Below, one piece after another: positions 1-18,417 of a DNA stretch of 20,000 bases. The notes beneath the pieces are model-generated. The model made no database searches. It was not told where the DNA came from and worked only from the letters and a program-made list of their open reading frames with translations. The position numbers were made by a program, and so were the translations under genes. Numbering within the stretch: position 1 is the first letter of the stretch; each line of letters opens with the position of its first letter. This DNA comes from an uncultured virus (IMG/VR IMGVR_UViG_3300032291_000723) (taxonomy: Duplodnaviria > Heunggongvirae > Uroviricota > Caudoviricetes), in the IMG/VR virus record IMGVR_UViG_3300032291_000723; one strand, written 5' to 3'.

Positions 1-1005
1 GCCAAAGGCAATATCTCCACAAACGATACAGGCAATGAGAAGTTAATCGACTCTCAGGATATCTCAAAGATTAAGAATGCAACTCAGATTGCAAACGACA
101 TGTATCCAGACCACGCTGCAAAGCGGTTTGACTACTGGAAGAAGTCGGTATCTTTGGATGGCATGTCTAACAATGCTCGTAACGAGTACTGGAAGACTTA
201 TGAAAAGATGCATCCCCGTGGTCTTGATGGGGCCAAGAGTGATTTTATTAATGTTACTCTTAATGAAGTAGGTCTTGTCAACGGAGTCTCCAACAAGGAG
301 TTCCTGTTGCGGGATCGTATCTCTAACTCCCCACCTTGGGCCAATGATGTCCTCGGCTCAGAGCTTGCAAAGTATTCCACTGTGGTTGCCAATGCCAACA
401 TGAGCAAGGCCAGCCAAGTCTACGGCAAGTCTCTGCAGGATAAGATCAATCGCTTTGTGCATAGCGCAAGCCTTGATCCCGATGTCTCTGTAGATCAGCA
501 CACTTCAGACTTCCTTCGTATGGAACAACTAAATCTGTTTGATGTTGCCTCGGTCAGCAATGGCCGTATTGGCGCACACGATCAGTCTGGTCAGTTTGTT
601 CCCGGCTTTGCTATTGCAGACCGTAAGCAAATCTTCCCAAAGGATTTCTATGGAACTCCATCAGTTGCTGAGCAGGTTATTGTACGAGATACTGCAACCA
701 AGCCAATCAAGGATGCAGTCGAAACAAGAATCATTAATCAGCGCAGCTCTATTTCCCGTCAGGAAAGACTGTCCGCCATGGAAGCCACAAAGCTTTTGGA
801 GGCAGGTCATTACCCAATGGATCGTTGGGGCGAGGCGTTCTCAATCAATCCAGAGGCTAGCAAGGAAGATCAGATTTCCCGTGGTTTAAAGGGAGAGATT
901 GCCGCTGGTCGGATTAAGTCTAATAAGGATTTAATTGAAGGAATCTATACTGCAATGACAAAGTTCCCAACAATGTTTGGAGATTTAAATAATGGCGGAA
1001 GTTAA
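1..1005 (+). CDS. 5'-truncated phage protein, probable virion/internal virion protein
   Basis: Frame 1 is open from base 1 (AKGNISTNDTGNEK...) through the ATG at 100 to TAA at 1003-1005, so the true start lies upstream of the window. It overlaps the next gene by 14 nt. Function is inferred only from position. Confidence 0.7.
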   Translation, partial: AKGNISTNDTGNEKLIDSQDISKIKNATQIANDMYPDHAAKRFDYWKKSVSLDGMSNNARNEYWKTYEKMHPRGLDGAKSDFINVTLNEVGLVNGVSNKEFLLRDRISNSPPWANDVLGSELAKYSTVVANANMSKASQVYGKSLQDKINRFVHSASLDPDVSVDQHTSDFLRMEQLNLFDVASVSNGRIGAHDQSGQFVPGFAIADRKQIFPKDFYGTPSVAEQVIVRDTATKPIKDAVETRIINQRSSISRQERLSAMEATKLLEAGHYPMDRWGEAFSINPEASKEDQISRGLKGEIAAGRIKSNKDLIEGIYTAMTKFPTMFGDLNNGGS

Positions 1006-4000
1006 AAATGAACTTAGTAAATTACTAGGCCAGAGAGGCTTAGATCCACTACAGCAAACTATATATGAACAGGGACCAAAGAATTCTTTTGTTGCCCCTG
1101 AAGTACAGAATGTATATCAAGAAGGTAAAGTATACTTCCCTTCTCCACAAGTTCAAGTAGAGAGTAGCGATGTTGCATGGTACAAGCTCGGTGAGTTTGC
1201 TTTTGATGCAGCCTTGAAGACATTCACAAATGTTCAAGACTATCTAATTGAAACAAAGCAAAACGGTATAGTTGATGCCAAAGATCAGGCGCAGACTGCG
1301 CTTTTTGATCTGGAGAGTAAGCTTAGCACCGAAAGCTATAACGCTGGTGCTCAGAAGAGAGAGAAGCAAGCAGCCCTTATCGAAGATATGCAAGCTGAAG
1401 CTAATCTCATTCGGCAAACATATGCTGACAAAGTAAAGAATGTTTTAGGTGATGATCATGATTTACTCCTGAATCCAAACCTAGACATGAACACTCTTGG
1501 TCTCAAGTATCAGAAGCTTGCTCTAACTAGCAGAGGAAGCGATAGAGATATTAGCCGTACAGCCAATCGAATGCTGTATCAACTTGAGCGTGTGAACAAA
1601 AACACCGAACAAGTCAATGATATGTCCAAGGCATGGATGGCTGGTGCTGGTATTACAAAAGATAATATTTCTGCATTTCAGACAGGCCTTGCTCCTATCC
1701 CAATGAATAATGGCGTTCCTGTCATTGGAGTTGATGTGCAGCCAAATGGCTCCTTTAAAATGAAGACAGCCGTTATTGATAATATAGAAGTTTCGTTGTT
1801 AATTAAACATGAAGGACAAGAAGGCTACTTCTTAAACTTACAAGCTATTGATGCAGCAAGTTGGGATGATCTACAGGGACTAGTATTACTAGATCAGAAG
1901 AACAGCTACTTAGCAAGTCCCGCTGCTAAGCAGTTTACCAAGACAACCGAAGATATCTTAACTAATGTAGCCAATACTGAAGGCTCTGCTATGAGCACAG
2001 GTATGTCTGCGTATGCTGGCCAAGTCTTAGCACAGTTTCCAGACTCCATAGCAGAACGAATGATCAATGGTCTGAGTGGATTAGGTACTGATGTTATTAC
2101 CAAAGAAGGTGCGCGTATGAAGCTAATGATGCTTCGTGATGCGGCTATTCAGAGGATGCCTATTGAGCAAATCAATACCCTCACAGCAATGTCTAACCAG
2201 TCTCTTGGCCAATCTATTGATGGTCTGCGTAAGTTACAAGCATCTAGTGGTGGTTTAATATATGGAAATATCAGAGAAACTGGAAGAATGGATGAGCTTA
2301 ATTTAGAAGCTGATGCAATCTTGAAAGTAATTGCTGGTATTAATCCAGAAGAACCACTACTCAAGCAGGACTTTAAGTTCAAGCCTGATTCTACAGGTAG
2401 CGGCTTTACTACTGCTAATCCTAACAACGCTATTATATTATCTCACTTCTTGCAAAAGAATCCCGGACTAATGCCAGTCGTTGCTCGGGTAATGGCTACA
2501 GCCAAAGACAATAGCGCACTATATACAAATGCAGATGGTACTATAGATCCAGCAAAGCGTTCTGCTCTACTTGGTAAGCTTCTGCATGAACAAGTTAATT
2601 CATCTAATTATGTTAACCTAGGTGCTCAGGCCGATGGTACGCCAACCTATGTTTATAATCCCGGCTTGATGCATGTACAACAAGGCATGTCTGAGTTAGC
2701 CAGAGACACACAAAAGACAGTCGGATGGCCTACTGCATTTAAAGATCCTAGCAAGCATCAGCAGGTCATGGCACAGACTGCATGGTTCTCTACAGACATT
2801 GGCAGCACATCTTCCAAAGCAAAAATCATGGAGATGTCTGCAGATCAGGCTTATGAAGCTGCTCGGTCTTTCATCCCAACTGCAGATAAAGATTTATTTG
2901 TTAAGGGATGGGAAGCAATGCAAGCCGTTCAGGATGATCCTGAGTACGGCTATCGCAGTGCAAGTCTACCTCCAATGGCTATGCTATACAGACTAGCCTT
3001 GGCTGCTACTCCTACTGTTCAGGAAAAGTCTGGTGCTTTTGCTATGTTTAGCGTAGCATCACCAGAGCAGCGAGAGCAAGCCATGAAGCGTATCATGGAT
3101 GACTTCCCCCTAGAAGTTGATCCTACTACTGGTTTTATGCCCGGTATTTCCATTGACATTGACACAGGTGCTTCTAGCCTTGACTTCATTGGTGCTACCA
3201 ATGGTGGCATTCCTATTGCCATTACGGGCATTAAAGGAAAGTCTGGTATTGATTATATGGACGCTACTTACTCTATCTCAAGTAGAGTCAATGGCCGTGT
3301 AATTCCTAAAGGCAGCGATGGTATGCCATCTCTAATGATTCATGCTAGCTCAGTCAATGATAAGAACCCTGAGTTCTCTTCTAATCTGAAGAGACTGGGC
3401 AGTGCTTATCGTGGAAACTTGGATATGTCCATTGCAACCAATCAAGACATGCCAAACGGAAACAGCCTTAATATTCGATCTGAAGAAATTCAGAATGTTA
3501 TTAGTGCAACTACCACTCCATACCTACCAAAGAAAGCACAGGCAATTTTTGGTAACATTCTAATTGATCAACCACTAGTTAATGCAGAGACAGCTATTGC
3601 TTCTTTAAGCCGAAATGGTGTTGCTCTGCGTGAAGTGGTTGATAGTGATCCTCAGTTGAGCAAGGTAAAGAAGTTAATGTATGAAGTTGCAGATATCAAT
3701 GGCAGAGGACCAGCTACGGTGGATAACCGTGTGCTCTTTAGCCCAGAAAATCTACAGCGTCTATATACGCAAGCAGTGGCCCGTGGAGCAAAGACACAAG
3801 GAGACTTTGTTGGCTTTGTGTTAGGAACAATGAAGACATTCCAAGAGAACAAGGCATCTCTAAAAGAGAGAGACTTTGTTGCTCAGAATCAAACCAACTC
3901 CGACACTACGCAAGACATTGTAATGCAGGGTGAAGAGCAAGGACGAATCCTTTGGAAGCCAAGCTCTCCTAGGTTCTTTGACTTTGTTACTGATCAAGCC

Positions 4001-15983: not shown

Positions 15984-16001
15984 CATGCCGAATAGATGGG
16001 G

Positions 16002-16199
16002 CTATAGATATAGTACTATAGATATACCTAGGTTAACCTAGGGGAGTAGCTAAGCTACTCTCCTAGGCACCTAGGAAATTCCTATAGGTTTTAGTTTAGG
16101 TTTTATTACTATGGATATAGCTTAGTCCCCTAGGTATCTCTCTAGTTAAAATCACAATAAATTATCCAACCTAGGTCCCATGGAAACATGGACCTAGGT
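16002..16199. repeat. Cluster of CCTAGG palindromes and inverted repeats
   Basis: CCTAGG occurs at 16027, 16037, 16062, 16070, 16129, 16170 and 16193. There is a perfect 16-bp palindrome at 16027-16042, hairpins at 16037-16067 and 16169-16199, and a direct repeat CTATAGATATA at 16002 and 16016. Confidence 0.9.
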
Positions 16200-16345
16200 A
16201 TTATGCGTATCACTGGTCAACCTCCCCCCGGTCTTGCCGGGTAGGTCCCTTGTCGATTTCGGTAGTTGCTCCCTCCCCGCTCACTGCCGGGGGAGCTCCC
16301 TTAGCTACGCCTGTTCCTGCTGGCCCTACGATGCCTCAGGAACGC

Positions 16346-16424
16346 TTCCTAAGAATCCAATGGGTCCAAGGGGCACCAAGGAGAGCCAAGGCCCCATAAG
16401 CGATTCCTAAGAAATCGACTTAGG
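16346..16424. repeat. 10-bp-phased CCAAGG repeats flanked by TTCCTAAGAA direct repeats
   Basis: CCAAGG starts at 16366, 16376 and 16386, with variant CCAATGG at 16357. TTCCTAAGAA occurs at 16346 and 16404. Confidence 0.8.
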
Positions 16425-16484
16425 GGTAAAAAATTAATAAAAGATTATCCCCCGTAGGTACCTTACCCTTGCCCCCCGCTACCC

Positions 16485-16566
16485 CCGGAGGGTCCGGTAA
16501 CTCGGGACATGGTTATCGGACCTAGCGCGGCGCCCCAAGGTTATCGGACTTTGGCGCCGGAGGGTC
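16485..16566. repeat. Nested direct repeats CCGGAGGGTC x2 and GGTTATCGGAC x2
   Basis: CCGGAGGGTC at 16485 and 16557; GGTTATCGGAC at 16511 and 16539. Confidence 0.8.
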
Positions 16567-16592
16567 TGAACATTCCCGGCTATGCGCGTCTA
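16567..16592 (+). promoter_or_regulatory. Candidate ECF-type promoter
   Basis: TGAACAT (16567-16573) and CGTCTA (16587-16592) resemble GAACTT-N16-TCTNA (sigmaE/AlgU type), with a 15-nt spacer here. A +1 near 16597-16598 would fall at the start of the hairpin-boxA element. Confidence 0.35.
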
Positions 16593-16597
16593 CCAGT

Positions 16598-16624
16598 GGC
16601 GGAGCGACCCGCCCTCTTTAACAA
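16598..16624 (+). promoter_or_regulatory. Hairpin followed by a boxA-like sequence (rrn-type Nus antitermination site)
   Basis: GGCGG-agcgac-CCGCC hairpin (16598-16613), immediately followed by CTCTTTAACAA (16614-16624). E. coli rrn boxA is TGCTCTTTAACA; the G is replaced by C here. Confidence 0.5.
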
Positions 16625-16635
16625 GTCAAACGTTT

Positions 16636-17155
16636 GCGTTTCCCGCGTCCCCCATGGGGAAAGTGGAAACTGGTTCTAGCGAATCATCGAATGCCCGATC
16701 CCAAGTACGCTAGGTTTCCATGGGGAAGCCAACGTAGCAAGCCGGACCCCTGAAAGGGGGTCGCGGGAAGTACGCCTAGCCTAACGGGAACGAAACCGGA
16801 ACGATGAAACGAGTGATTCGCGCAAGCGAATCGAACCGTAATACCTGCCACCCCTTGGATGGGGTAAGGTAGTGCGCGTATCCCGGATGACTAACGGGAA
16901 CGCATGGACGGGAACGGTAGCACGTTCCACCCATGAAACAATAATTAATTCCGATACCCTGCTTTCTTTCCGCAGGGTATCGGCTAGGACTCTCCGCAAT
17001 CGTTAGGGCCAGCCAATGCCACGGACGCCATGAGTTATCGGTGCGACCAGTATAGGGTCTATATCCGATAAGTACCGCAGTACCGTGGCCCATATAAATG
17101 GCCCCTGAACTATGCGGAGGGTTCTAGCCGATCCGTCCACCGTGGACAATCGGAA
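16636..17155 (+). ncRNA. Putative large structured RNA or leader of the early transcript (family not recognised)
   Basis: Nearly continuous nested helices, GAAA (16752-16755) and GCAA (16822-16825) tetraloop hairpins, and a 20-bp helix 16979-16998/17113-17132 whose only non-Watson-Crick pairs are G-U on the + strand. No convincing ORF in the interval. Confidence 0.7.
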
Positions 17156-17178
17156 CTCAAGTTTACGGAGACTGAATC

Positions 17179-17595
17179 ATGTCTATCGACCGTGCTACTT
17201 TCGTTCGCGTTGCTTCCGCCTGCAACTTGTCCGCTGCTTTCTCGGACACTCTCGCTAGCGGCAAGGGTCGGACGGCTACGGGGAAGGTGGATTGCCGAAA
17301 GTTTGCTGCCCTGATGGAGAAGGTGGCATTTATGTACGGCAAGGATTGTGCGTCCAAGTACTTCATGCTGCCTATCCTGCTTGCCAAGGCAGGTATCCCG
17401 GCGGATGCTTTCCGGTGGCGTGGCAATGCCACGGAGGGTATCGAAGCCCATCCGGCGGCTGAAGTGTTCCAGACTCTTTGCACGGAGTACCTGCAGGGTC
17501 TGTATCCCTACGAAACTTGGGAGACGGCATCGTCTGCTCCGCAGGTTCGCCGCAAGGATATCCCGTCCGATATCCTCGCCACGCTCGATATCTAA
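17179..17595 (+). CDS. Hypothetical early protein, 138 aa
   Basis: GGAG at 17167-17170 upstream of the ATG. First gene after the structured leader. Confidence 0.85.
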   Translation: MSIDRATFVRVASACNLSAAFSDTLASGKGRTATGKVDCRKFAALMEKVAFMYGKDCASKYFMLPILLAKAGIPADAFRWRGNATEGIEAHPAAEVFQTLCTEYLQGLYPYETWETASSAPQVRRKDIPSDILATLDI

Positions 17596-17601
17596 TCGGG
17601 C

Positions 17602-17666
17602 CGTCTATCCCCGCAGGGGGATGGACGCTAGGGTATCCCCTGCGGGGGATGCTCTAGCGTCTATCC
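17602..17666 (+). other. Overlapping intergenic inverted repeats (possible RNase III site or RNA switch)
   Basis: An 11-bp hairpin (17602-17627) overlaps a 22-bp hairpin (17619-17666). All deviations from Watson-Crick pairing are G-U on the + strand. Confidence 0.7.
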
Positions 17667-18290: not shown

Positions 18291-18417
18291 GGTATGCCAT
18301 AGGGAAACCTATGGTATGCCTTTCCAACTAGGGGTGCGCGGCTAGACCATTCCACCCCGCCCAGTGTCGTTGTGTTACAACCCAACGGGATAGCGTAGGG
18401 AAACCTATGCTATTCCC
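18291..18417 (+). other. Structured intergenic element bounded by twin TAGG-GAAA-CCTA hairpins
   Basis: 13-bp stems at 18291-18320 and 18387-18416, each with a GAAA loop and two G-U pairs. Two shorter stems lie between them (18331-18358 and 18368-18387). Confidence 0.75.

Follow-up and report, generated by a model that had tools for sequence, protein, structure and literature searches.

In the record of bacteriophage T7, a boxA-like motif at about position 812 is followed by a hairpin before gene 0.3. The RNase III sites of the early transcript, which besides R1.1 are named R0.3, R0.5, R1 and R1.3, are not annotated in this record. Cleavage of the T7 R1.1 site has been placed at nucleotide 5887 (PMC8708148), and RNase III is described as needing about 11 bp above the cut (PMC3867540). 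A C-G base pair at pair 4 of the proximal box lowers the reactivity of E. coli RNase III 7-fold while binding is not blocked (PMC1540722), and that of the Aquifex enzyme about 10-fold (PMC3074117); the rule is known from these two enzymes only and may not be that of the host considered here. A different kind of large regulatory RNA is represented by 6S RNA, a rod of about 200 nt with a closing stem, a central bubble and an apical arm, in which the 3' strand of the bubble is -10-like and the apical region -35-like (PMC8876501). No phage-encoded 6S or 6S-like RNA was found described in the accessible portions of the literature that our searches returned.

The DNA analysed here (the window, 20,000 nt) makes up the last 20 kb of a contig of 64,924 bp, whose ends overlap by 123 bp. 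This T7-like freshwater phage genome encodes a T7-type single-subunit RNA polymerase, primase/helicase, DNA polymerase, head-tail adaptor, capsid and terminase. The closest cultured phages share only 26-28% polymerase identity, and nothing was matched by blastn against GenBank phages. Scans of metagenomes and prokaryote genomes were empty, so that no host was identified. The element under study, 16949-17155, closes a 1.2-kb non-coding gap (15984-17178) between the gene for a 3537-aa virion protein and the first early gene. By analogy to T7, this gap would hold the genome end and the early leader. A scan for sigma-70-type promoters found no consensus promoter. Directly after the last virion gene, the segment 15984-16220 is AT-rich and palindromic, with seven copies of CCTAGG. 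An inverted pair, GTCGATTT / AAATCGAC, about 160 nt apart, lies within 16253-16435; it is followed by a conserved motif that is present in 10 IMG/VR records of the clade. This arrangement may bound the terminal repeat.

Together, folding models and the comparison of related leaders indicate that the element, with which the early leader ends in a group of uncultured T7-like phages, is a genuine and conserved RNA junction with two states. Its parts, and the first gene downstream, are as follows.

16949-16955, plus strand: strand S1, with CCGAT at 16951; its partner is S4 (outer stem, isomer A) or S2 (isomer B)
16956-16978, plus strand: arm 1, carrying CCCTGC-N-TTCTTTC at 16957-16970
16979-16998, plus strand: 5' strand of the arm 2 basal helix; S2 is 16979-16983
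16999-17112, plus strand: distal rod, restricted to one clade; it has a 4x4 loop, a 6x9 bubble and, at its apex, a TTATCGG/CCGATAA helix
17093-17099, plus strand: TATAAAT on the 3' strand of the rod's 6x9 bubble
17113-17132, plus strand: 3' strand of the arm 2 basal helix; S3 is 17128-17132
17133-17155, plus strand: arm 3 (17135-17147) and strand S4, with ATCGG at 17149
17167-17170, plus strand: ribosome-binding site (RBS) preceding the first early gene
17179-17595, plus strand: first early gene (gene 1), 138 aa, no family

The segment 16949-17155 folds with a minimum free energy (MFE) of -104.7 kcal/mol (z -9.19), and none of 200 shuffled sequences is as stable. The original prediction had described a four-way junction with a bubbled rod and switchable arms. 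The helices it named lie at their coordinates in the sequence and are present in the MFE and centroid folds. Within the rod, the 20-bp helix 16979-16998/17113-17132 with two G-U pairs and the 6x9 bubble stand as described, while one detail needs revision: at 17003-17011 the MFE structure pairs UUAGGG with CCCUGA and CCA with UGG, with a one-base bulge, instead of GGGCCA with UGGCCC. CCGAT and ATCGG alternate at 16951, 16979, 17128 and 17149, and both resulting arrangements are allowed in constrained folding. Isomer A, the four-way junction in which S1 pairs with S4 and S2 with S3, has an energy of -105.2 kcal/mol; isomer B, in which S1 pairs with S2 and S3 with S4 to form three hairpins, has -103.0 kcal/mol. 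The outer stem is predicted to form with a probability of 0.93 in the window. Isomerisation just upstream of the first RBS had also been proposed; the alternation and the RBS start at 17167 agree with it, but the predicted RBS accessibility in the window is identical in the two isomers (0.50 vs 0.50), which gives no support to a translational switch here.

When the window, the element and the upstream domain were compared with Rfam, no family, ribozymes, GOLLD, ROOL, RNase P and tmRNA included, matched at the gathering score, and the only hits, miRNA-like and RNase P-like, were weak and far below the cut-off. Searches for tRNA and tmRNA found none. A likeness of words in the rod to the pistol ribozyme was set aside, as the order of elements differs and Rfam gave no match.

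Eight distinct leaders were compared: the window, L004 (obtained via gene 1), L160 (via a terminal motif), L135, L139, L140 and L141 (via the polymerase, 79-81% identity) and L167 (via the junction pattern, and hence selected for the junction). L155 and L158, which stop short of the leader, were omitted from the counts, and L002, L144 and L168, which duplicate the junctions of the window, L135 and L167, respectively, were counted once. The junction is present in six of the eight leaders, or five of seven without L167, and is located 13-16 nt 5' of the RBS. The close relatives L140 and L160 are without it. Both isomers can be paired in all six junction lineages, with 9-10 of 10 pairs each, which bears out the switchable arms of the original prediction; the outer stem has a predicted occupancy that varies between 0.93 in the window and 0.01 in L135.

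The arms are more variable. Arm 2 is 154 nt long and contains the bubble in the window and L004, and is 41-45 nt long without a bubble in the other four lineages (L135, L139, L141 and L167). The long rod is additionally covered by contigs of runs X2, X4 and X7, and L141 carries a long insert inside the loop of arm 1. In a tree of the neighbouring virion protein, in which several forks are weakly supported, short-arm forms flank the window clade on both sides. With the caveat that early modules may recombine, the long rod therefore looks derived, a lineage-specific extension. Since rod and bubble occur in two of six lineages, the junction occurs in six of eight leaders and no match to the 6S family (RF00013) was obtained, the conserved unit is the junction and not the 6S-like rod. 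A weak resemblance links the 5' half of the rod (16989-17042) to the 3' part of the short junction (P 0.007-0.05 in four of six comparisons), and the rod may stem from a local duplication.

The window and L004 differ at 12 of 140 paired and at 18 of 67 unpaired positions (Fisher p 0.001). All four changed pairs in the junction and basal helix remain paired, by G-U/A-U exchanges. In the distal rod, two of six changed pairs are compensatory and four break in the window's register; L004 nonetheless refolds into a similar rod (z -7.6).

The leader upstream of the junction contains four further features.

16492-16549, unstranded: CCGATAAC-type motif, three copies of mixed orientation that follow a C-rich tract (regular-expression match)
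16598-16613, plus strand: small hairpin, next to the boxA-like motif
16613-16623, plus strand: boxA-like motif CCTCTTTAACA, 10/11 positions matching the consensus GYTCTTTAANA given in PMC5725501
16838-16940, plus strand: upstream three-hairpin domain, common to the window, L004 and L167/L168 and not recognisable in the other leaders

The upstream domain has changed on both sides in 3 of 44 pairs among three sequences, a count that includes the adjoining arm 1 columns. Upstream of the junction (16560-16948 and equivalents) the leaders are mosaic, with folding z-scores from +0.2 to -3.8; L139 and L141 share a second domain, and L135, L140 and L160 each differ again. The leader of a more distant phage, L164 (G008 1-2900, minus strand; RNA polymerase 49% identical), is different and has, before the early genes, three copies of a T-tract with CGATATCC after it, possibly promoters or terminators.

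The early genes are separated by additional hairpins, the first of which resembles arm 2.

17619-17666, plus strand: hairpin of 22 bp in the gap between early genes 1 and 2, starting with CUAGG as arm 2 does; 26.5 bits with the short-junction model

A strong hairpin is found at this position in all nine loci folded. The short-junction model, built from three short junctions, matches the gene 1/2 hairpin in the window, L004, L135, L139, L141 and L160. Searched against the whole genome, it matches only this hairpin and the junction; it has no match in T7 1-3300 or in the distant phages G008 and G014. A looser junction pattern returned 120 chance loci, of which 80 were screened with the short-junction model and none matched. 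Going by these model matches, the gene 1/2 hairpin is likely a paralogous signal. Further downstream, hairpins of 13 bp that contain G-U pairs and are capped by a GAAA loop lie between early genes (18291-18320 and 18387-18416 in the window), with several copies in L135, L139, L141 and L160. They often precede a U-rich TTCTTTC and an RBS, and may mark cassette boundaries for the shuffling of early genes. Homologues of gene 1 contain modular insertions and end in a C-terminal tail that hardly varies. For its product and that of gene 2, the ESM Atlas offered no usable lead.

The position of the element, a boxA identical to that of T7 upstream (10 nt, 16614-16623, match the T7 early-leader boxA-like stretch) and the paralogous hairpin before gene 2 suggest that it forms the structured 3' end of the early-leader RNA and most likely acts as an R0.3-like RNase III processing or stabilising signal. 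We regard this as the most probable reading, with about even odds of being right. Host polymerase would transcribe the leader through boxA, and arm 2 would be recognised by host RNase III, with cleavage at its base between 16983 and 16984 and between 17129 and 17130, if the T7 register applies. The first early mRNA would thereby acquire an end that is defined and protected, and the sliding junction may gate the cut. The predicted cuts coincide exactly with the start of the five migrating pairs, so that in isomer A the duplex would run on without a break for five base pairs beneath the scissile bonds, whereas in isomer B these pairs are re-partnered and the scissile bonds would lie at a junction, where helices meet.

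The cut register was set by R1.1 in the T7 sequence and agrees with the description of the boxes in PMC1540722. It places the proximal box at 16984-16987, paired with 17124-17127. At least 13 bp lie above the predicted cut in all six lineages, 15 of them contiguous in the window and L004; the short forms have 13-15 bp, and the L167 helix is interrupted after 6 bp. Pair 1 of the proximal box is G-C and pair 2 A-U in six of six rows, which are homologous and not independent, as in the E. coli consensus of PMC1540722. Pair 4, from which the antideterminant rule bars G-C and C-G, is C-G in five of the six and A-U in L167; pair 3 has U-A in place of A-U, and UA/UG is not found at the distal-box positions. 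Scored with a profile of five T7 hairpins, arm 2 is not above shuffled sequences in any of the six lineages (P 0.08-0.91; 0.25 in the window and 0.91 in L004). The gene 1/2 hairpins give P 0.07-0.64 in five rows, and the best score (P 0.01) falls on the 3' strand of arm 1. A CUAG determinant considered for Aquifex RNase III was dropped, as it has 0 occurrences in PMC3074117.

As in T7, a hairpin lies between the leader and the first early RBS, just 5' of the latter and after a boxA-like motif, a further hairpin precedes the next gene, and pairs 1 and 2 of the proximal box are G-C and A-U in the same register. Unlike the T7 sites, the element is embedded in a branch-migrating three-armed junction, is completely paired around the predicted cut, a place taken by an internal loop in T7, is much more stable, has the C-G at pair 4 in five of six lineages and carries arms of up to a 154-nt rod. 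An RNase III substrate had been offered in the original prediction as an alternative to a 6S-like RNA. It is the reading we favour, with the reservations that the sequence likeness to T7 sites is not significant and that pair 4 is an antideterminant in E. coli.

The main suggestion of the original prediction, a 6S-like promoter mimic that would complement a phage sigma factor, is not supported. RF00013 has no match in the window (E<=5), in the element alone or in the whole genome (E<=10), while 7 of 14 control genomes match. Like 6S RNA and at a similar size, the 154-nt rod of the window and L004 is closed by a helix and interrupted by a bubble, whose 3' strand is AU-rich; these features are confined to those two lineages. 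Its largest loop is 6x9, a comparison to be read with the fact that ViennaRNA gave no open central bubble for E. coli 6S itself. The rod is not a free-standing gene, and the bubble with its -10-like strand is found in two of six lineages. Given the missing RF00013 match and the distribution of the bubble, the element is not a member of the 6S family. Sigma70_r2 has no match in the phage genome, and thus no phage sigma factor was detected; a T7-type polymerase is encoded instead.

Several other explanations can account for parts of these data. One, which we consider unlikely, is that the leader stays uncut and serves as a structure: stacked helices, perhaps with RNase III bound, would shield the 5' part of the mRNA, and CCCTGC-N-TTCTTTC would be a translation or pausing signal. 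The C-G at pair 4, which in E. coli blocks cleavage and not binding, speaks for it, as does the distribution of the loop motif, the most constant sequence of the region. It is present in all eight leaders including both junction-less ones, where it sits 26-32 nt 5' of the start codon, and TTCTTTC alone has six occurrences in 10.5 kb of early DNA but a single one in the remaining 54 kb of genome G000 (the bias is similar in L139, L140 and L141). An uncut leader, however, leaves the retention of both pairings in every junction lineage unexplained, and predicted RBS access differs little between the isomers (0-0.16). Distinctly less probable is an antitermination module, boxB/boxA- or put-like, that would keep host polymerase moving and aid genome entry. 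A hairpin followed by a 10/11 boxA match recalls rrn/lambda-type leaders (PMC5725501), the motif TCTTT[A/G]ACA with its hairpin lies upstream in four of eight leaders, and the upstream domains are folded in the window, L004, L135 and L140 (z -2 to -3.8). Yet the motif lies about 330 nt upstream of the junction, outside the flagged structure, and is missing from L135 and L139, both junction-bearing, while the paralogous gene 1/2 hairpin fits processing better.

We find it harder still to accept that the fold is a by-product of DNA palindromes, in which alternating CCGATAAC-type protein-binding motifs near the genome end would have no RNA function. Such motifs are repeated upstream in mixed orientation, with 1-4 copies in each of the eight leaders and an orientation that differs between relatives (regular-expression matches). 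The array probably represents DNA-level sites near the genome end, possibly binding sites of the left end comparable to T7's short repeats. The four junction strands and the rod apex carry the core of the motif, and the window folds equally well on both strands, with an asymmetry of less than 1 kcal/mol. Against an origin in DNA, the plus strand out-folds the minus strand in six of six lineages. In the four short forms, which contain 4-6 G-U pairs, the minus strand is less stable by 6-20 kcal/mol, the changed junction and basal pairs between the window and L004 all stay paired, and the stem of arm 3 is kept among the six lineages while its sequence is largely different. The folding advantage of the plus strand, strongest in the short forms, favours a structure at the RNA level in these models. 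The least probable alternative is that a rod of about 146 nt (16984-17129) is released in this clade and acts as a 6S-like holoenzyme decoy or as a decoy for a dsRNA sensor. Its shape, with closing helix, bubble, apical arm and roughly the size of 6S, its two compensatory distal pairs and TATAAAT on the 3' bubble strand, which is kept in L004 (chance roughly 0.1 at the unpaired change rate), would suit such a role. No T7 gp2-type polymerase inhibitor (PF16857) was matched in the phage genome, which makes another route of host shut-off conceivable. That a junction-gated RNase III cut frees this rod as a trans-acting polymerase decoy in place of a gp2-type inhibitor seems equally improbable. The 6S search was negative and the bubble measures just 6x9 nt, the rod is absent from four of six junction-bearing relatives with short forms on both sides of the tree, four of six changed distal pairs break in the window's register, and no phage sigma was detected. 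In T7, moreover, host polymerase is needed when early RNA is made, which counts against a polymerase decoy.

The element may be among the candidates of PMC10690425; six short motifs had no match in the part of its supplements that was searched. If the RNase III reading is true, a natural RNase III site lies at the edge of a mobile, Holliday-like RNA junction, which is kept across phages whose neighbouring virion proteins are only about 36-47% identical. The element would then be a small and experimentally tractable example of RNA branch migration that controls processing, with arms of 41 to 154 nt as natural controls. Should the rod turn out to bind polymerase, a 6S mimic encoded by a phage would be at hand; otherwise the element would be a modest elaboration of T7 early-leader biology.
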